From: Candidatus Campbellbacteria bacterium
GTDB taxonomy: Bacteria; Patescibacteriota; Minisyncoccia; Phycocordibacterales; JABAAK01
Direction of reading: 5' to 3'
DNA length: 63,499 bases
NCBI GenBank assembly: GCA_028817035.1
Contig: JAPPQH010000005.1
Span: 1 to 63,499 of the forward strand
In this document: one piece after another, positions 8,163 through 56,594 of the stretch
Position numbering within the stretch: the first letter of the stretch is position 1
Layout of the letters: every line of letters starts with the position of its first letter
Notes under the pieces: model-generated
Told to the model about the DNA's origin: nothing
Database searches by the model: none
The model's input: the letters and a program-made list of their open reading frames with translations, nothing else
Made by a program: the position numbers and the translations under genes

Positions 8163-8185
8163 GTAGCCAAAAATTGACTATTTTT

Positions 8186-8293
8186 TGGAAAATATGGGGT
8201 CCTCTACCTTGGTTAAGAGCGACGTGTTGGGTTTTACGCTACCTTTCCTTTCATTCTGTGAAAAAAAAGAACTTTCGGCAAAGAACCCCACAC
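8186..8293 (-). ncRNA. Long-hairpin small RNA, unit A (unassigned family)
   Basis: Promoter TTGACA (8321-8326), 17-nt spacer, TATCCT (8298-8303). The 5' GUGGGGUUCUUUGCC pairs with the 3' GGUAGAGGACCCCAU over 15 bp, followed by a U-rich tail. Confidence 0.65.
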
Positions 8294-8339
8294 AAATAGG
8301 ATATATTATGCCCTTGGGTTTGTCAATTTATTAAAATTG

Positions 8340-8421
8340 TGTGGGTAGATGTGGGGTCCTCTACCTTTAAAACCCTCACGGGCTCACAACAACTTTCAGA
8401 CATCGGCAGAGAACCCCACAA
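8340..8421 (-). ncRNA. Long-hairpin small RNA, unit B
   Basis: Promoter TTGACA (8450-8455), 17-nt spacer, TACCTT (8427-8432). 15-bp closing helix 8405-8419 with 8351-8365, and an internal GUGA-capped hairpin. Confidence 0.65.
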
Positions 8422-8464
8422 CAATAAAGGTATATTATGCCCTTGGTCTTGTCAATTTATTAAA

Positions 8465-8558
8465 ATATAGAAAGTGTGCAGGACCTTCTATAGCCTCGTC
8501 CTTAGTCGGATGGGTTTGCGGGATGAAACCACCCGACGCACAATAAAAAATCCTGCAC
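8465..8558 (-). ncRNA. Long-hairpin small RNA, unit C
   Basis: Promoter TTGACA (8589-8594), 17-nt spacer, TACACT (8566-8571). 16-bp closing helix 8543-8558 with 8476-8491, and an inner 12-bp hairpin. Confidence 0.65.
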
Positions 8559-8611
8559 GAATAAAAGTGTATTAAACTTTTTTTAATTTGTCAAATTTAT
8601 TGAAATTGTGT

Positions 8612-8681
8612 AAATAGAAAATATGGGGTCTCCTACTTTACCGGTTGGCAGAGACGAAATCGGTAAAGCAAAAGACCCCAT
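8612..8681 (-). ncRNA. Long-hairpin small RNA, unit D
   Basis: Promoter TTGACA (8711-8716), 17-nt spacer, TACCAT (8688-8693). AUGGGGUCU/AGACCCCAU closing helix plus CUUUACCG/CGGUAAAG, then AUUUUCUAUUU. Confidence 0.65.
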
Positions 8682-8784
8682 AAGTAGATGGTATGGCTTA
8701 CTTTTTAATTTGTCAAACTGATAAAATAAAGACAGATTTTGGTTTTGTACCAGAAACCAATTCTATGCTATCCTTGTAAGTGAA

Positions 8785-8858
8785 GCGAATGTAGCTCAGT
8801 TGGTTAGAGCACTCCACTGATAATGGAGAGGTCGTAGGTTCAAATCCTACCATTCGCA
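8785..8858 (+). tRNA. tRNA-Ile (anticodon GAU)
   Basis: GCGAATG acceptor, CTCCA-CTGATAA-TGGAG anticodon arm, GTAGG-TTCAAAT-CCTAC T arm. Confidence 0.9.
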
Positions 8859-9080
8859 CAAACATTTCGCTTAACACACAAAATAAAAGGAGTTCTGGCT
8901 CGCTACCGACAGAACCAATCGCGATAGCGATTTGGGTTTTGCGAAGCAAAACTTGGCGGGTGGAGCAGCGAGCGACAGCGAGCGCCGGAACCAAAACAAA
9001 AATGTATAATTTCTTTAACATTTTTGTTTTGGTTTGGTACCGTCAAGTGAGATTCCTACCATTCGCACAAACATTTCGCT
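8845..9080 (+). mobile_element. 182-bp hairpin-rich insert flanked by a perfect 27-bp duplication of the tRNA-Ile 3' end
   Basis: TCCTACCATTCGCACAAACATTTCGCT occurs at 8845-8871 and 9054-9080. The insert holds a GTTTTGCGAAGCAAAAC hairpin, a GAGCGACAGCGAG motif and a 15-bp stem (CCAAAACAAAAATGT / ACATTTTTGTTTTGG). Confidence 0.6.
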
Positions 9081-9094
9081 CTTGTAAAGATTAA

Positions 9095-9124
9095 CGCCCC
9101 GAACGAAATTAATCGTTCGGGGCG
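9095..9124 (-). terminator. Terminator of the 9152-9667 gene
   Basis: 12-bp stem CGCCCCGAACGA / TCGTTCGGGGCG with a 6-nt loop. Confidence 0.6.
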
Positions 9125-9151
9125 TGTGGATTGCTCGCCACAACCTTCTCC

Positions 9152-9667
9152 TCACTTGGGATCCAGTTCTGTGGGATCGCTACCGCCTTCTGCAAGCGGA
9201 GGTCCTGCTTGGGGGGTTGTTTCACCAAAATCTAACCCAAAGTCTGTAGGCACAATTGTCCCGTCATGCATTTGTCCTTCTTCATCTCCATTATTTTTCT
9301 TTTCCATAAAGTTGATGAAAAAATTGCTCGCACAAAACAAAAGTGCCCCATCAATGAGCGCGAGACCCGACAAAAAAAGCAAGGAGTCATCGTCTTTGAA
9401 GAAAGCCCATAAAAGACCAGCGATAAAAGCAAGGAAAGCTGTAAGAAAGCAAAAGTAGGTTAGATGCTCTACAGTTTGCTTAATCACTGTCTCTTCATAT
9501 GAATCATGGATACACAAACCAAGACGAACAAGGATGTATACACAAAGAGACATTACAAACGCCAAGCTGATTGATGAAATAAAAGGCAAAAGCAGAATTG
9601 CTCCACATGCAACCACAGTTGACGGAAGCAACAACGGAAGCAGAAAAGCTTGTTTTTGTTCCAACAT
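9152..9667 (-). CDS. Hypothetical membrane protein with acidic C-terminal tail (171 aa), SD-led
   Basis: About four hydrophobic helices. TAGGAGGAAAACGAT precedes the ATG. Promoter TTGTCA-17-TATAGT lies at 9700-9728. Confidence 0.65.
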   Translation of the reverse strand: MLEQKQAFLLPLLLPSTVVACGAILLLPFISSISLAFVMSLCVYILVRLGLCIHDSYEETVIKQTVEHLTYFCFLTAFLAFIAGLLWAFFKDDDSLLFLSGLALIDGALLFCASNFFINFMEKKNNGDEEGQMHDGTIVPTDFGLDFGETTPQAGPPLAEGGSDPTELDPK

Positions 9668-9699
9668 ATCGTTTTCCTCCTAAAAAGATCACCATTATT

Positions 9700-9728
9700 A
9701 CTATACACTATAATTTCCACTTTGACAA
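9700..9728 (-). promoter_or_regulatory. Sigma70-like promoter for 9152-9667
   Basis: TTGTCA (9723-9728), 17-nt spacer, TATAGT (9700-9705) preceded by TG. Confidence 0.55.
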
Positions 9729-13416: not shown

Positions 13417-14085
13417 ATGACCACGCAAAATGCTGGGCATCAAGGATGCCCAGGCGGAGAGAAGAAAGAAGAGGAAGGAAAGAAGGGTGTGTGGTGCTAT
13501 TGTAAGAAGTGTAAAGGATGGAGGGAGCACTGCGCACATGGTCTTTGTAAGCTTTGCTACAATAAGCAACGGAAGGCGAGAGAGTTCCTATGCCCAGGGT
13601 GTAAAAGATGGAGGGAATACTGCGCACACGGTTTCTGCAAGAGTTGCTACAACAAGCAATGTTGTAAGGCGAGAGAGTTCCTATGCCCAGGATGTGAAAG
13701 ATGGAGGGAATACTGCGCACACGGTTTCTGCAAGAGTTGCTACAACAAGAAACGGAAGGCGATAGAGCTCCTATGTCTAGGGTGTGAAGAACAGAGGGAG
13801 CACTGCGCACACAAACTCTGTCGTCGGTGTTACAAAAAAGTTCGGCGCCTAGCCAAAAAAGAAGGGCTGACAGTGAAAAAATTTTTGGCAAAGGAAGGAG
13901 CGAAGATATTACCATTTGCACCTTCACCGCCACGACCAAAGTCATCAAAAGCGAAAAAGGGTAACAAGCTTTTGACAAAAAAAGAAATGTCGTTGCCAAA
14001 AGAACAAAGGGTGAAACTCATCAAAGAAAGAAGGCTATCTCTCATCAAAAATGCTGTTGAGAGGTATCAATTGCCAAAATATTAA
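13417..14085 (+). CDS. Basic protein with four tandem CxxC-x6-CxH-xx-CxxC zinc-binding modules and a Lys-rich tail
   Basis: ATG at 13417 preceded by CAAAGGAGGTATCCAAG. Four repeats of C..C......CAHG.C..CY, and a 93-bp near-identical DNA duplication from about 13578 and 13671. Confidence 0.75.
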   Translation: MTTQNAGHQGCPGGEKKEEEGKKGVWCYCKKCKGWREHCAHGLCKLCYNKQRKAREFLCPGCKRWREYCAHGFCKSCYNKQCCKAREFLCPGCERWREYCAHGFCKSCYNKKRKAIELLCLGCEEQREHCAHKLCRRCYKKVRRLAKKEGLTVKKFLAKEGAKILPFAPSPPRPKSSKAKKGNKLLTKKEMSLPKEQRVKLIKERRLSLIKNAVERYQLPKY

Positions 14086-14128
14086 CACCCAGAAATCATT
14101 ATGGAAGATGATTTCTGGGTGCTTTTTT
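14086..14128 (+). terminator. Intrinsic terminator of the Cys-rich protein gene
   Basis: 14-bp stem CACCCAGAAATCAT / ATGATTTCTGGGTG followed by CTTTTTT. Confidence 0.8.
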
Positions 14129-14148
14129 CCCCAACTCTGCCTCCAACT

Positions 14149-14236
14149 CCGCGACCCTGCGAGCAAAACCAAGCGAGTGGCGGAGCCACGAGCGATAATG
14201 AATAATGAATAAGGAGGGGCTCGCGGAGCGAGCCCC
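14149..14236 (+). repeat. GC-rich interspersed repeat, copy R2
   Basis: CCTGCGAGCAAAACCAAGCGAGTGGCGGAGCCACGAGCGATAATGAATAATGAATAAGG, then a GGGGCTCGC-GGA-GCGAGCCCC hairpin. Confidence 0.75.
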
Positions 14237-14278
14237 GGGGGGTTGACAAATCTTGCGACTTGGTATACCATATATATT

Positions 14279-14390
14279 GAGGGTCGGAGAGTTCTCCAAC
14301 CTTTCGGGATGGGGGACTAAAAATCCCGTTAAAAGTCCCCTAGCGGGTGTGTGGAGACTAGCAACCTCTCCACCACCCGCTTAATCTTTT
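14279..14390 (+). ncRNA. Unassigned small structured RNA of about 110 nt with a predicted pseudoknot
   Basis: Promoter TTGACA (14243-14248), 17-nt spacer, TACCAT (14266-14271). Closing helices GGGU/ACCC and GGAGAG/CUCUCC. The loop of hairpin CGGGA/UCCCG (GGGGACU, 14312-14318) pairs with AGUCCCC (14334-14340). 3' CUUUUUA. Confidence 0.5.
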
Positions 14391-15481
14391 TATATCTTAA
14401 ACAAAACGATATCACCGTCTTGAACCACATAGTCCTTCCCTTCTGTTCGGGCAAGTCCATTTTCTCTCGCCACTGCCAAAGAACCACACTTTACAAAATC
14501 ATCATAGCCAACGACTTCTGCTCTTATAAATTTTTCTTCAAAATCAGTATGTATCGCACTGCCCGCCTTCGGCGCTTTGCTTCCCTTTTTTATAGTCCAA
14601 GCACGGGTTTCTTTTTCTCCCACCGTAAAAAAAGTTATCAATCCAAGTAATTTATAGCACTCGCTTATAAGAGAATCCAGAGAGTCAACTTTTATTCCCA
14701 CTTCTTTACAGAAAAGTTCCCTCTCTTCTTGGCTCACCTGTGACAAACTATTTTCTGCAAATACATCAAGTATTATCGCTTTTATATTCCGCTGTTCAAT
14801 TATCTCGCATGCATATTGGTATGATTCATTGCTCTGCTCCACATTCTCACCTGCCATCTCAACATTAAATATGTATAGCATTGGTTTTATGCTTAGAAAA
14901 CCAAGATTGTTCAGCGCGGTCTTTTCATCTTCTTCAAAATCACCTTCCAAAAGTGGTTTTTCTTTTTCAAGGTATCCGATTGCTTTTGTGATAAGTGCCA
15001 GTTCTTTTTTCGCTTCAGGGTCTTTTTTTGCATCTTTTTTCAGTTTTTCAGCGCGTCTGTTTGATATCCCTAAATCATAAAGTATGAGTTCAAGCGATAT
15101 TGTTTCTATGTCTCTTTTTGGATTGGGCGCACCATCAACATGGACTATCTTTGAGTTTTTGAAAAGTCGAACCACCTGAACTATCGCATCAACCTCTCTT
15201 ATGTTTGAGAGAAATTCATTGCCAAGACCTTCACCTGACGAAGCGCCTTTGACCAAACCTGCGATATCAACATACTGAACCACCGCTGGTATTTTCTCTT
15301 TTGAATTTGCAAGCTCAGACAGCCTTTCAAGTCGCTTGTCAGGAACAGGAACTATTCCGACAGATGGCTTTATCGTGCAGAACGGATAATTTTCTGCAGG
15401 GACGGATTGACCTGTTAGTGTGTTGAAGAGTGTTGATTTACCTACATTGGGCAGACCCACTATGCCGAGAGTTAATGACAT
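14390..15481 (-). CDS. ychF: Ribosome-binding ATPase YchF
   Basis: [13 protein letters not shown]1 motif, a TGS-like C terminus and 363 aa typical of YchF/OLA1. Confidence 0.92.
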
Positions 15482-15484
15482 AAT

Positions 15485-16069
15485 TTAACAAGCTTTTTTA
15501 CCTAAACTTTCTATCTTTTCCAGCCAACTCTTCCTCACTGTTTCATCTACTTTTTCTGCTGGTCCAAAAGTACTGACTTTAACAGGGCTAAAACCACTAA
15601 AACCTAAAATGCCTCTTGATATTTCATTTGTAAAATCTCCATACTTCCAAAACAAGCGCCACGGAGCGTCCGTCCCTGCGATAATTATCACCCTTGCGCT
15701 CTTGCCTGCAAGAAGTTTTTTTAATGACTTTGTTTTCTTGTCAAAGTTAAAAGCAAAGCCAGGCAAAAAAGCACGGTCAAAAACTCCCTTTAATAATGCG
15801 GGCATCGTAGACCACCAGTTTGGATAAAGAATCACGATATGATCTGCCCATTTTATATTTCCCTGAAACTCCAGCAAGTCTGGTTCAAGCGGTTGTATTT
15901 CCCTATAGCCATTATGGAGTATGGGGTCAAACTTCATATCTCCTATATTCATTCTTTTGATACTATGCCCTGCTTTTTTCGCAGCGTTTTCATATGTATC
16001 AGCACACGCTGATGAGAAAGAGCCTTTTACTGAATTGCCGAGGAACACAAAAATCTTTTTTTTCTCCAT
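15485..16069 (-). CDS. Flavodoxin-like fold NAD(P)H dehydrogenase (quinone) family protein
   Basis: 194 aa. The pattern IFVFLGN...ADHIVILYPNWWSTMPALLKGVFDR matches the Flavodoxin_2 / MdaB-KefF-like pattern as I recall it. Confidence 0.7.
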   Translation of the reverse strand: MEKKKIFVFLGNSVKGSFSSACADTYENAAKKAGHSIKRMNIGDMKFDPILHNGYREIQPLEPDLLEFQGNIKWADHIVILYPNWWSTMPALLKGVFDRAFLPGFAFNFDKKTKSLKKLLAGKSARVIIIAGTDAPWRLFWKYGDFTNEISRGILGFSGFSPVKVSTFGPAEKVDETVRKSWLEKIESLGKKAC

Positions 16070-16071
16070 AT

Positions 16072-16581
16072 CTATTTGTTTATTTGGGTTTGGGTTGTTA
16101 CTGGCTTGTAGAAAGAATTATACAAAAAACCAGACAAGGATATGACTATCAAATACATGCCCAACACACTGACAAAATCATCAGAGCTTGTTATTGGAAC
16201 ATAATATATTCTTGAAAAAACAACATAAAAAAGATAAGTATACCAAGAAGCAAACATAAGCGGTGGTCCAAACCACATGGGTATCCTGTGCGCTGTCATC
16301 AAGACCGCATTAGAGATTATCACCAACATTATGAGAGCACGAAACCAAACGGAATAGTCTGAAAAGTCGGTGAGGAAAAGGAGGAGTATGAGAATTATGC
16401 TTAATGAGAACATCGCCAAGCGCAAAACAAAATATATGCTACCCATTATCCTCCTTTCAGATTTTTCTATGACTCCATCTTGAATTGATGCGAAATATGA
16501 CAAAACCGCAAAAGTAGATACGCCAGCACCCAAACTAATCATCAGAGATTCTAAAAATATGAGTAGTGTGATATCAAACAT
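16072..16581 (-). CDS. Hypothetical integral membrane protein
   Basis: 169-aa ORF with 5-6 hydrophobic helices, tightly packed with its neighbours. Confidence 0.6.
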   Translation of the reverse strand: MFDITLLIFLESLMISLGAGVSTFAVLSYFASIQDGVIEKSERRIMGSIYFVLRLAMFSLSIILILLLFLTDFSDYSVWFRALIMLVIISNAVLMTAHRIPMWFGPPLMFASWYTYLFYVVFSRIYYVPITSSDDFVSVLGMYLIVISLSGFLYNSFYKPVTTQTQINK

Positions 16582-16584
16582 GGT

Positions 16585-16812
16585 TTATTTCATTGTATCA
16601 ATTATCTTCTGGCGATACTGCTTCATAACGGCGATTGAGGCGAGTGTTTCGTCCTGCCCTTCTTTTTTGCGCTTTTCTATCTGGTCGTTTATCTCTTTGA
16701 ACAACTGAGGATTTTTCTCTATCAACCTTTCAACAAACTCCCTCTGTTCTGGTGGTAGTTTTTTGAGTTTTGACTCCATCGCCTTCCTGTAAAAAAAATC
16801 TTTAATTCCCAT
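16585..16812 (-). CDS. Small hypothetical helical protein (75 aa)
   Basis: The track ORF trimmed to M28, because upstream codons translate tRNA-Ala. TATTAT lies 6 nt upstream of the ATG. Confidence 0.55.
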   Translation of the reverse strand: MGIKDFFYRKAMESKLKKLPPEQREFVERLIEKNPQLFKEINDQIEKRKKEGQDETLASIAVMKQYRQKIIDTMK

Positions 16813-16834
16813 ATATCTATAATACCTTAATTTG

Positions 16835-16908
16835 TGGACCCGACAGGAATCGAACCTGCGACCTCCGGAGTGCAAAACCGGTGCTCTAGCCAACTGAGCT
16901 ACGGGCCC
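16835..16908 (-). tRNA. tRNA-Ala (anticodon UGC)
   Basis: GGGCCCG acceptor with G3-U70, loop TTTGCAC, GCAGG-TTCGATT-CCTGT T arm. Confidence 0.9.
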
Positions 16909-16951
16909 ATTAGGTAATTATTAATTCTATCACAATATTCTTTTTCGTGTA

Positions 16952-16983
16952 CAAAAAGATATGGCGACCAGCGGTCGCCATAT
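16952..16983 (-). terminator. Intrinsic terminator
   Basis: ATATGGCGACC-AGC-GGTCGCCATAT, followed by CTTTTTG on the minus strand. Confidence 0.7.
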
Positions 16984-16984
16984 G

Positions 16985-17224
16985 TCAGTTAAGAGAATAA
17001 GGGGCTTCGGGTATGATGATTATACCATTGCCGTTTTTGGTCCCTACCATCTCCTCTATCCGATTACGATCTTTCTCGTATAGGTGAGCAAGCAATTTCT
17101 CCTGCCACTCCCCTATTTCTCGCTGTCTTTCTGGCGACAGAGTCGCTGGGTCTGACAGCCCGAGAGACTGATAAAATTCCTTGAGAGCCTTGAGAGATAG
17201 AGCCTTTGTGTCATTATTTTCCAC
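16985..17224 (-). CDS. Possible small protein (79 aa) with GTG start
   Basis: The track ORF trimmed because its N terminus translates tRNA-Leu. AGGTGG lies 6 nt upstream of the GTG, and the gene has its own terminator. The start is uncertain. Confidence 0.35.
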   Translation of the reverse strand: MENNDTKALSLKALKEFYQSLGLSDPATLSPERQREIGEWQEKLLAHLYEKDRNRIEEMVGTKNGNGIIIIPEAPYSLN

Positions 17225-17311
17225 CTTCAACCACCTCGCTGTGTAAGGAACATTTGAAACAACCAAGTTAATTATACATAAAGAAAAAAGTTGTTGCAAT
17301 AATTTTTGTAG

Positions 17312-17394
17312 TGGGCAAGGAGGGACTTGAACCCTCACTGGATAAATCCAACTGCGTCCTAAGCGCAGCGCGTCTGCCATTCCGCCACTTGCCC
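17312..17394 (-). tRNA. tRNA-Leu (anticodon UAG)
   Basis: Class II tRNA: GGGCAAG acceptor, CTGCG-CTTAGGA-CGCAG anticodon arm, long variable arm, GAGGG-TTCAAGT-CCCTC T arm. Confidence 0.9.
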
Positions 17395-17423
17395 ATCTAT
17401 AAAATGATACATCAAAATATACC

Positions 17424-17467
17424 AAAAATAAAAGGCCGTTTACATTTATTACGCGTAAACGACCTTT
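17424..17467 (-). terminator. Terminator separating the atypical tRNA-like gene from tRNA-Leu
   Basis: AAAGGTCGTTTAC / GTAAACGGCCTTT stem with one mismatch, followed by TTATTTTTGG on the minus strand. Confidence 0.6.
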
Positions 17468-17474
17468 GGGATCG

Positions 17475-45320: not shown

Positions 45321-45393
45321 GGTGTCTATGGTGTAATGGTTAGCACTCGGGCTTGTGGAGCCTGCAGTGAGGGTTCGAATCCCTTTAGACACC
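45321..45393 (+). tRNA. tRNA-His (anticodon GUG) with encoded G-1
   Basis: G-1 plus GTGTCTA acceptor, loop TTGTGGA, GAGGG-TTCGAAT-CCCTT T arm, discriminator C. Confidence 0.88.
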
Positions 45394-45609
45394 CTTGAAA
45401 TCAATTACAAATACCCTTGTGGTATTTGTAATTGGTTTTTGGTCTAAGCGGGAATTCTCACGGACGGGGTTGCAGGGGGTTTCCGAACCCCCTGCAGGGG
45501 TCAGCGAAACAAAACAATGTCTTTGTTTTGTTGAGCGCATAGGGGTGCACCCCTATGGCGCAGACAACACGAAGTGTTGTCGAGCAGTGAGTGTTCCCTT
45601 TAGACACCC
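45380..45609 (+). mobile_element. 200-bp hairpin train flanked by a 15-bp duplication of the tRNA-His 3' end
   Basis: TCCCTTTAGACACCC occurs at 45380-45394 and 45595-45609. The insert contains five consecutive hairpins: 45402-45434, 45471-45496, 45508-45532, 45535-45561 and 45563-45581. Confidence 0.6.
45402..45440 (+). terminator. Intrinsic terminator after tRNA-His
   Basis: CAATTACAAATACC-CTTGT-GGTATTTGTAATTG followed by GTTTTT. Confidence 0.75.
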
Positions 45610-47917: not shown

Positions 47918-48004
47918 TGGTGCTCAGGAGAGGACTTGAACCTCCACGGGATTGCTCCCACACGCCCCTCAAGCGTGCGCGTCTACCAGTTCCGCCACCT
48001 GAGC
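47918..48004 (-). tRNA. tRNA-Leu (anticodon GAG) with genomically encoded CCA
   Basis: GCTCAGG acceptor, CACGC-TTGAGGG-GCGTG anticodon arm, long variable arm, then ACCA at the 3' end. It is the only tRNA in the window with encoded CCA. A terminator hairpin GCCACC-GA-GGTGGC follows. Confidence 0.88.
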
Positions 48005-48280
48005 ATATAGATATATCTTATATCATTTTGGGAATTTTGAGAAATGGGGTGGAAGCAAGCGAAATAGGTTGTAAAGGCATAAGTCCGACCGCAACGAGCC
48101 TGCGAGTTGCGTCAAGCGAGGCGGTGAAACTGCCGAGCGATAATAAAAAGTCGCCACCTGAGCATATAGATATATTCTATATCATTTTTCTAATCTATGT
48201 ACTCCAGCCCTCAAGCGTGCGCGTCTACCCAGCGAGCCTGCGAGTTGCGTCAAGCGAACGGAGTGGGCGACTAAAATATA
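48005..48280. repeat. Mosaic of tRNA-Leu(GAG) gene fragments interleaved with repeat copies R4 and R4b
   Basis: The 5' acceptor plus upstream region (47994-48030) is re-found at 48153-48190. The D/anticodon segment (47965-47987) is re-found at 48205-48229. R4 lies at 48094-48150 and R4b at 48231-48275. Confidence 0.7.
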
Positions 48281-56408: not shown

Positions 56409-56594
56409 TATGCGGAAGGGGTGGGATTTTTCACTTGCTTCGCAAGTGAAACTGTTTTCTAAACTCGCTGTCGCTCGTTAAGAAAAAAGCGCCGAACCTA
56501 TAGCCCTATCGGGCTCGTTCGAACCCACCCCATATAAAAAATAAAAGATGGTAATAAAACCATCTTTTATTTTGTATGCGGAAGGGGTGGGATT
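56409..56594 (-). mobile_element. 146-bp insert flanked by a perfect 20-bp duplication of the tRNA-Ser 3' end
   Basis: TATGCGGAAGGGGTGGGATT occurs at 56409-56428 and 56575-56594. The insert holds the tRNA terminator, an inverted T-arm fragment (56513-56535), a GAGCGACAGCGAG motif and a CACTTGC-GAA-GCAAGTG hairpin. Confidence 0.6.
56533..56568 (-). terminator. Intrinsic terminator of tRNA-Ser
   Basis: AAAAGATGGT / ACCATCTTTT stem followed by ATTTTTTAT on the minus strand. Confidence 0.7.

Follow-up and report, generated by a model that had tools for sequence, protein, structure and literature searches.

Directly behind the tRNA-Ile(GAU) gene of a Candidatus Campbellbacteria genome lies a small structured insertion that belongs to a family found in two genera, joins the tRNA at fixed positions, and encodes no recombinase. 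We studied it in a window of 63,499 nucleotides (contig JAPPQH010000005.1), the whole stretch of DNA that was analysed and to which coordinates refer unless another sequence is named. The genome (G000) comprises 566,427 bp in 17 contigs, is rated 97% complete, and holds the window as its contig 9. We compared it above all with G011, a closed chromosome of 696 kb from the same family and a different (sister) genus, of which G003 and G008 are further species. We favour, with a probability of roughly 55%, the reading that the unit is a miniature, protein-less, structured and non-autonomous element that targets the tails (3' ends) of tRNA genes and is moved in trans, an option already raised in the first-pass annotation. 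We do so because one scaffold recurs with the tails of the local tRNAs, because a site occupied in one genome is empty in others, and because the units keep a constant length and show compensatory changes in their stems.

The window carries two exact copies of a 27-nt direct repeat, both on the + strand, and no further match at up to three mismatches; two matches were reached in 0 of 100 shuffles. The first-pass annotation had placed this duplication around a 182-bp interior, and its coordinates hold (Table 1). Because ARAGORN ends the tRNA gene at 8859 and Rfam (RF00005, 80.7 bits) at 8858, the repeat consists of the last 15 or 14 nucleotides of the tRNA plus 12 or 13 nucleotides downstream, the latter division being the one originally given. 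The interior (8872-9053) had been described as lacking an open reading frame (ORF), and the mechanical ORF list, the only coding evidence that was sought, agrees: it holds frames of 42-51 aa and one of 102 aa that crosses the tRNA in antisense, none of them credible. The insert folds better than shuffled sequences on both strands (z = -4.2 on the + strand and -3.6 on the - strand). When it was searched against Rfam 15, the tRNA alone was matched, the other scores being at most 21 bits against thresholds of at least 40. The motif said to recur in the tRNA-Ser insert does so: GAGCGACAGCGAG lies at 8970-8982, with a copy on the opposite strand at 56464-56476, and its pattern has 3 matches at one mismatch or fewer where 0.03 are expected.

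The unit at tRNA-Ile, of the type that we call D, measures 209 bp (8860-9068), and the units of this class range from 209 to 221 nt. Full copies share one layout: a left part, two short hairpins, a direct repeat of 7-8-mers, a long A/T-rich hairpin, and a right-end motif of 18 nt. The left part is A/C-rich, starts at the tRNA end and is 57-58 nt long in all four full copies. The short hairpins ATCGC/GCGAT and GTTTTGC-GAA-GCAAAAC had been recognised beforehand; the stem then given as 15 bp is in fact a perfect one of 17 bp. Across the copies, unpaired segments are conserved and stems covary. For five sequences RNAalifold predicts 45 consensus pairs at -36.05 kcal/mol in the tRNA sense, and 10 of these pairs show compensatory double changes; the antisense alignment gives 35 pairs at -30.48 kcal/mol, and several mismatches are G:T on the sense strand. 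The comparison of these predicted folds leans weakly towards the tRNA-sense strand, and is partly dependent on the alignment. Read from the sequence, CCGTCAAG of the right-end motif could pair with CTTGGCGG at 8952-8959, while RNAalifold chose a different closing helix. No reverse complement of the tail was seen by eye in the D-type spacer.

The portion of the repeat that extends beyond the tRNA is identical to the first 12 nt of the left part (8860-8871). The 12 extra nucleotides behind the second tail copy (9069-9080) are either flank that was duplicated or the stub left by a tandem copy now gone: since the conserved GAAC lies 57 nt from the tRNA end here and in G011 alike, they may just as well be the first 12 nt of an element. 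In-place duplication of flank was therefore rejected as a proven source of the overlong repeats (Ile +12, Pro +44), because the left-end alignment allows a tandem-copy stub equally. Partial next units, comparable to the stub proposed here, follow the Ser arrays of G011.

The D scaffold was matched by blastn in G011, at 72-78% identity, in four full or near-full copies and one partial copy. In four of these five, the scaffold runs on into the local tRNA's tail, which begins at position 60; the copy behind tRNA-Tyr is the exception. A single scaffold is thereby found with Ile, Arg or Leu tails. The locus of tRNA-Arg(UCG), whose surrounding genes are syntenic in G003, G008, G009, G010 and G006, gives a direct view of the site with and without the unit. 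In G003 and G008 the tRNA-Arg directly joins a promoter-like flank, and in G011 this flank comes after the second tail copy; the unit of G011 is absent at that site in the other genomes compared. Because the site is empty in G003 and G008, the D unit is a discrete insertion. That D is patchily present over two genera is better explained by gain and loss than by inheritance.

The repeat at tRNA-Ile is one instance of a lineage-wide habit, since tail copies follow 13 of the 38 tRNA genes called by ARAGORN in G000 and 11 of the 43 in G011. A tail copy was counted when a tRNA's own last 12 nt recurred within 3 kb downstream, and 12 of the 13 cases in G000 fall within 350 nt. Random 12-mers recur within 350 nt at a rate of 0.8-1.0%, so that 0.3-0.45 tRNAs would be expected by chance. 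The first-pass annotation had named tRNA-His and tRNA-Ser as places where the architecture returns; both are confirmed, with repeats of 15 nt (45380-45394 and 45595-45609) and, at tRNA-Ser(UGA), 20 nt (56575-56594 and 56409-56428), but the extent of the phenomenon had been understated.

Junctions, measured over 23 loci (6 D/His-class, 6 A-type and 11 C-type copies), follow rules that are specific to each family. In all six D/His-class copies (Ile and His in G000, Arg and Leu in G011, plus a second element of G041) the tail copy starts at tRNA base 60. A-type copies start at base 58 (six of six) and C-type copies at base 56 (10 of 11), the true C-type junction being probably 56/57. The repeat ends 0-3 nt from the tRNA end at 16 of the 23 loci. 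Because the first copied base is fixed within each family and the repeats mostly end at the tRNA end, both ends of the elements sit on tRNA landmarks. The exact repeat is 15 nt long in five of the six D-class copies and 27 nt at tRNA-Ile, and its length ranges from 17 to 61 nt in A-type and from 19 to 67 nt in C-type copies.

It had been proposed to align the Ile, His and Ser inserts with one another. They cannot be aligned as copies of one element; what they have in common are short motifs and the logic of their junctions. The His insert has the same junction as D and a similar end motif, and no relatives of it were found outside G000 among the 61 genomes searched. The A-type insert behind tRNA-Ser(UGA) contains a 92-nt scaffold that is 88-100% identical among copies; behind this scaffold come the tails of four Ser genes, Tyr and Pro (six different tails). 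The C scaffold is present in 9 of 61 relatives, six other families included, and each full C copy inspected follows a Ser, Pro, Gly or Asp tRNA, whose tail forms its end. C-type copies also have two upstream segments, split by a hairpin, that are jointly the reverse complement of tRNA positions 54-74. These segments fit the cognate tRNA best: the half facing the T-loop matches at 11-12 of 12 positions, against at most 9 of 12 for other tRNAs (three tRNA types), and the acceptor half matches the cognate tRNA at 9 of 9 in G041. Judged from their sequence they look like a guide, and the tail copy can pair fully with them, which predicts a foldback resembling the acceptor and T stems. Short motifs, the GAGCGAYAGCGAG repeat and AAACTTGACG, recur across families A, B, C and D. 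Mosaic B modules are abundant in G000, where one query returned 48 blastn pieces, and the B-module hairpin is present in 43 copies with three stem variants, all of them fully paired. The inserts are modular mixtures.

Table 1. Features of the tRNA-Ile insert, and of related inserts in the window and in G011.
Feature	Sequence	Position	Strand	Remarks
Intact target gene tRNA-Ile(GAU)	window	8785-8859	+	ARAGORN, Rfam
Direct repeat, copy 1: tRNA positions 60-74 (15 nt) and 12 nt downstream	window	8845-8871	+	
A/C-rich left part, 57 nt, from tRNA end to conserved GAAC	window	8860-8916	+	left-end alignment; length as in G011 copies
Hairpin 1, ATCGC GATA GCGAT	window	8918-8931	+	one extra compensated G:C pair in G011
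Hairpin 2, GTTTTGC GAA GCAAAAC	window	8936-8952	+	kept in all full copies
Direct 7-mer repeat, GCGAGCG-ACA-GCGAGCG	window	8968-8984	+	motif GAGCGAYAGCGAG common to insert families A, B and C
Long hairpin, perfect 17-bp stem (8989-9005 / 9018-9034)	window	8989-9034	+	stem sequence varies between copies, pairing kept
Conserved 18-nt right-end motif GGTACCGTCAAGTGAGAT	window	9036-9053	+	abuts the tail copy
Direct repeat, copy 2: tail copy 9054-9068 (tRNA positions 60-74) and 12 nt (9069-9080)	window	9054-9080	+	
Terminator-like hairpin of convergent ORF 9152-9667	window	9094-9125	-	likely original tRNA-Ile flank
His insert: terminator-like hairpin, four hairpins, end motif CAGTGAGTGT, then 15-nt tail copy from position 60	window	45395-45609	+	behind tRNA-His(GUG)
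A-type insert: 92-nt scaffold (56429-56521) ending GTGAAA, then 20-nt tail copy (56409-56428) from position 58	window	56409-56577	-	behind tRNA-Ser(UGA)
D copy	G011			behind tRNA-Arg(UCG)
D copies, two in tandem	G011			behind tRNA-Leu(GAG)
D 3' half (partial copy)	G011			far end of 2.2-kb cassette, then Leu tail
D copy, 3'-degraded, without tail	G011			behind tRNA-Tyr

Several other observations concern these repeat families. An A-type scaffold stands at the start of contig 3 of G000 (18-140). None of the tRNAs found in the assembly matches the tail behind it (AATCCCACTCACCCC...), so that it is either an orphan or a sign of a tRNA gene that was left unassembled. Many contig ends of this genome (e.g., C3:1-24, C6:1-55, C7:60-240, C9:1-77, C14:1-120) are occupied by mosaic B and A modules; because they sit there, these repeats are the probable reason why the assembly is fragmented. 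At tRNA-Leu(GAG) (47918-48260) the phenomenon takes a 5'-side form, in which the promoter region and the first 12 nt of the gene are duplicated 159 nt upstream (47993-48029 and 48152-48188), with B-module pieces and a further internal tRNA-Leu fragment between the copies. Behind both tRNA-Leu genes of G011 (about 610040-610810, and 522000-522160) lies an insert of yet another type, joined at the D-loop. A conserved linker of some 58 nt, in which tRNA positions 8-15 recur in inverted orientation, leads into a tRNA copy that begins in the D-loop (about position 18).

A search for integrases across the genome, as the first-pass annotation had suggested, revealed no dedicated enzyme. Each of five family genomes (G000, G003, G006, G009 and G011) encodes one Xer-like tyrosine recombinase (PF00589), and no tyrosine integrase was found in them beyond this gene. 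In G000 and G011 the protein has about 306-312 aa; it scores 247.8 bits against XerD, below the cut-off of that model, and 235 bits against archaeal XerA, above the cut-off of 220. In G000 the gene encodes 306 aa, is the sole PF00589 match in the genome, and is located on contig 2, not on that of the window, between two ORFs that we take, judging by eye from their translations, to be xth- and rpsO-like. Serine recombinases, reverse transcriptases (PF00078), IS110, rve (PF00665) and DDE_Tnp_1 (PF01609) had no match in G000 and G011; the TnpB-type (PF07282) and Y1/RAYT (PF01797) families, searched in G000, had 0 matches there. A reverse-transcriptase gene (RVT_1), in a frame of 469 aa, was observed on the chromosome of G003 (198738-199445). 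The sole Cas1 of G000 (347 aa) sits in a Cas12d locus of clustered regularly interspaced short palindromic repeats (CRISPR), and none was found in G011 and G003, though both carry such elements. This type V-D locus (contig 4, about 13500-19200) encodes, beside Cas1, a Cas12d/CasY of 1223 aa (NF033951, 1054 bits), and its array has 21 identical repeats of 24 nt and 20 spacers of 19 nt. A link between CRISPR and the inserts was considered and rejected, as the 20 spacers have no match at two or fewer mismatches in G000 or G011.

Copies of tRNA sequence also bound islands that lack an integrase and bear genes, with sizes of 1.9 kb at tRNA-Gln in G000 and of 2.3 kb and 2.1 kb in G011. The cargo at tRNA-Gln is a PPDK_N/PEP-utilizer protein, and that at tRNA-Ile of G011 is a matrixin-like protein. 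A further cargo of G011, an N6_N4 methylase with an EcoO109I-like endonuclease (type II restriction-modification), ends in the 3' half of the D scaffold and a Leu tail.

The arrangement of the junctions suggests how a D unit could be installed. Its left end joins at the tRNA 3' end (position 74/75) and its conserved right end (..CCGTCAAGTGAGAT) joins a second tail copy that begins at T-loop position 60, so that insertion keeps the tRNA intact and adds one extra tail. The element presumably moves, or moved, as a unit, and an enzyme supplied in trans would do the moving. The tail copy may be a target duplication produced by staggered cuts at two landmarks, or a short att-like identity block. Candidates for the enzyme would be the single Xer-like tyrosine recombinase, a Cas1-type integrase, and an unrecognised or external protein. 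Families A, C and the His-like inserts obey the same logic with their own T-loop junctions. A bolder scheme, which we regard as decidedly speculative and rather unlikely, is that Patescibacteria harbour programmable protein-less elements whose folded strand, of RNA or of single-stranded DNA, would recognise a tRNA gene by its last 21 nt, in C-type by means of the split reverse-complement guide. Host machinery (tRNA-end processing, the Xer-like protein, replication or repair) would then install the element between the 3' end and a regenerated tail, and tRNA genes would serve as integron-like docks that collect cargo such as restriction-modification.

A number of results weigh against the idea of a mobile element moved in trans. 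The searches named no enzyme that moves the unit, so that mobility is inferred from distribution alone, and a repeat of non-constant length (15 versus 27 nt) is unfit for a classical transposase. D has no terminal inverted repeats: its left 40 nt and the reverse complement of its right 40 nt share a run of at most 6-7 nt. The covariation rests on few events, because three independent D-type sequences exist. The scaffold is single-copy in G000, where the Ile insert has no blastn relative. At the Ile locus, no alternative, empty or circular joint was found in X1, a public run that holds the locus as contigs, in a single form, and is possibly the source sample. The 11 relatives with which the tRNA-Ile locus was compared are all outside the genus of G000; in none of them is the downstream context shared or a tail copy present within 1.4 kb, and because there is no same-genus genome, no orthologous empty tRNA-Ile site was found for G000. 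Blastn found no D scaffold in 10 of the 11 other family genomes or in about 300 genomes of the order, and the covariance model R1, run over 151 order genomes, matched G000 and one further genome marginally (E = 0.009), leaving 149 without D. The insert had no blastn match in phages and plasmids, and longer D patterns had 0 matches in viral and metagenome contigs. The 16-mer of the D right end recurs in at least 120 stretches of genome contigs, which blastn attributes to chance except, among the matches listed, the own record of G011 and one match of 24 nt. As D was not found in most relatives or in the viral, metagenome, phage and plasmid collections, there is no sign of an autonomous parent.

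The first-pass annotation had also offered a decayed scar. As considered here, an element of kilobase scale with a tyrosine integrase would have entered tRNA-Ile at an identity block reaching from the T-loop to the 3' end and lost its interior, leaving attL, a remnant and attR, a relic like that of a cis-mobilisable element. This accounts well for the tail repeat, since elements that integrate into tRNA genes classically leave just such a repeat, which begins in the T-loop and makes the tRNA whole again, and an attB in the T-loop has reportedly been described in one paper. The larger integrase-less islands at other tRNAs (tRNA-Gln of G000, and those of G011) agree with it as well, and the tandem arrays resemble accretion. 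The rest fits poorly, as decay would have to lead repeatedly to one unit of about 200 nt with identical boundaries, and independent events would not converge, in two genera, on 209-221 nt with a 57-nt left part, covarying hairpins and an 18-nt right-end motif. Moreover, one scaffold occurs with different tails, whereas the identity block of an attP is fixed for each element, the five family genomes hold no integrase except the Xer-like one, and phage, plasmid and viral collections hold no relative of the insert; we therefore find a decayed scar unlikely. A similarly low probability goes to a functional structured RNA, or folded single-stranded DNA, that is co-transcribed with the tRNA, uses its tail for processing or targeting (by tRNA-end enzymes, or by pairing with the tRNA gene), and spreads as a secondary matter. 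Its conserved unpaired segments with covarying stems, the somewhat better consensus fold of the sense strand, the boundaries at the T-loop and the mature 3' end, which are landmarks of the tRNA as an RNA, and the C-type foldback between tail copy and reverse-complement segments all speak for such a role. Yet no Rfam family matches, the strand preference is weak and in part dependent on the alignment, and D-type inserts have no tail-complementary segment. The absence of the scaffold from most relatives would be odd for a housekeeping RNA, and the empty/filled polymorphism and the versions with cargo indicate a mobile element.

That there is no element at all, and that fragile tRNA sites in a repair-poor lineage duplicate their tails by template switching and import mosaic repeats, seems to us quite improbable. 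The genome is indeed rich in short mosaic repeats, the inserts are modular, tRNA copies also begin at the D-loop, at the end of the anticodon stem and at the 5' end, and a mobility enzyme was not found. Nevertheless, G000 contains no second D copy that could have served as template, and yet the insert matches the copies of G011 over its full length; nor would random repair yield junctions that are exact and family-specific across genera and tRNA species. An artefact, by which a mis-join or collapsed repeat would have produced the duplicated 27-mer, had been named as a way to overturn the finding and now has a negligible probability. The assembly is sensitive to repeats, as those at the contig ends indicate, but a separately assembled X1 contig of 10,124 nt (depth 14.4) spans 8300-9700 with 0 differences, although it may share reads with the assembly, and the closed chromosome of G011 shows this architecture too. 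Three narrower ideas were discarded. A guide RNA of the TnpB/IscB kind was set aside since G000 has no PF07282 match and direct repeats are unlike that biology. A retro-element that copies the mature tRNA tail as far as a block in the T-loop conflicts with copies that lack CCA and run into genomic flank, and with the absence of PF00078 from G000 and G011. A resemblance of the right-end motif to a T-box found no Rfam match, nor do motif and discriminator base change together.

The common view is that ultra-small episymbiotic bacteria harbour few mobile elements. In two genomes of about 0.6-0.7 Mb, around a third of the tRNA genes bear small structured inserts with exact tRNA-defined junctions, and the genomes show neither a recognisable transposase nor a dedicated integrase. 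If these are mobile, they would be a compact means of docking DNA at tRNA genes without harm, cargo such as restriction-modification included, and what moves them would become directly testable. Tail copies and pseudo-tRNA pieces can also mislead tRNA annotation and break the assemblies of such genomes. Two further parts of the window drew attention. Between ftsE and tRNA-Ile (8170-8720) there are three tandem diverged units (repeat families D14/D15), each with a hairpin of the GGGGTC...GACCCC type and two of them with a promoter-like TTGACA-N17 site on the minus strand; they may represent small RNA genes or a further family of repeats. At 17474-17559, adjoining tRNA-Leu(UAG) and tRNA-Ala, ARAGORN calls an 86-nt "tRNA-His(ATG)" (Rfam tRNA, 48.4 bits) that shares a 13-nt stretch with tRNA-Ala and whose identity is doubtful.

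A limited search of the literature found no description of a comparable element, and we compared the inserts with known systems. Cis-mobilisable elements (CIMEs) are described, in the part of the source that deals with them, as elements that keep attL and attR and have lost their integration genes (PMC5704250), and partial tRNA genes are reported to be left by elements of 9-23 kb (PMC9897764). As far as these accounts go, the inserts resemble such att-bounded remnants: a repeat of the 3' part of a tRNA, placed between T-loop and 3' end, bounds DNA without integrase, the tRNA stays intact, and units accrete in tandem. At tRNA-Ile the flanking repeats, as putative att sites, are present and the genes absent. 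The inserts differ in being about 200 nt rather than kilobases long and in having one covarying scaffold with many tails; moreover, the genomes and collections searched hold no related integrative and conjugative element, integrative and mobilisable element, phage or integrase. Elements with a tyrosine integrase likewise produce a direct repeat of the tRNA 3' part around an intact tRNA, whereas the inserts have no integrase within or next to them and their identity block varies within the D and A families.

Transposable elements of the miniature inverted-repeat type (MITEs), repetitive extragenic palindromes (REP) and bacterial interspersed mosaic elements (BIME) are, like the inserts, small, non-coding, hairpin-rich, multi-copy, intergenic and modular mosaics without an internal transposase. 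Unlike MITEs, D has no terminal inverted repeats, and its repeat of 15-27 nt is set by tRNA landmarks instead of having a fixed length of 2-10 bp. As to copy number, D amounts to four full or near-full copies and one partial copy in G011 and one copy in G000, and the genomes searched have no DDE, Y1, IS110 or TnpB match. The REP/BIME systems mobilised by RAYT differ by that enzyme, with 0 matches to PF01797 in G000, the genome searched. The casposase of A. boonei, in the sections of the study that treat its target, inserts beside the T-psi-C segment at the 3' end of tRNA-Pro with a target duplication of 15 bp, and its off-target events have repeats of 3-1802 bp (PMC5137440). Five of the six copies with junction 60 resemble this described target in having a 15-nt repeat right after the T-loop. 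The inserts differ from casposons by the absence of terminal inverted repeats and of Cas1 in cis, and G011 and G003 have no Cas1; because the repeat measures 17-20 nt in families A and C, there is also no single yardstick of length. On account of that 15-bp duplication a Cas1-type mechanism is an attractive analogue, yet Cas1 is missing where some of the elements occur. IS1549 and IS1634 have long direct repeats of variable length, for which the relevant passage of PMC2266710 offers no model. Those elements differ in measuring 1.5-2 kb, encoding a DDE transposase and showing no tRNA specificity, and PF01609 is absent from G000 and G011. Other mobile elements find their targets by base pairing, as do group II introns through their exon-binding sites and IS110 elements through a bridge RNA. 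The inserts are far smaller than these, G000 and G011 have no reverse transcriptase or IS110 recombinase, and D-type has no complementary segment; the likeness lies in the C-type inserts, whose two segments are complementary to 21 nt of the adjacent cognate tRNA.

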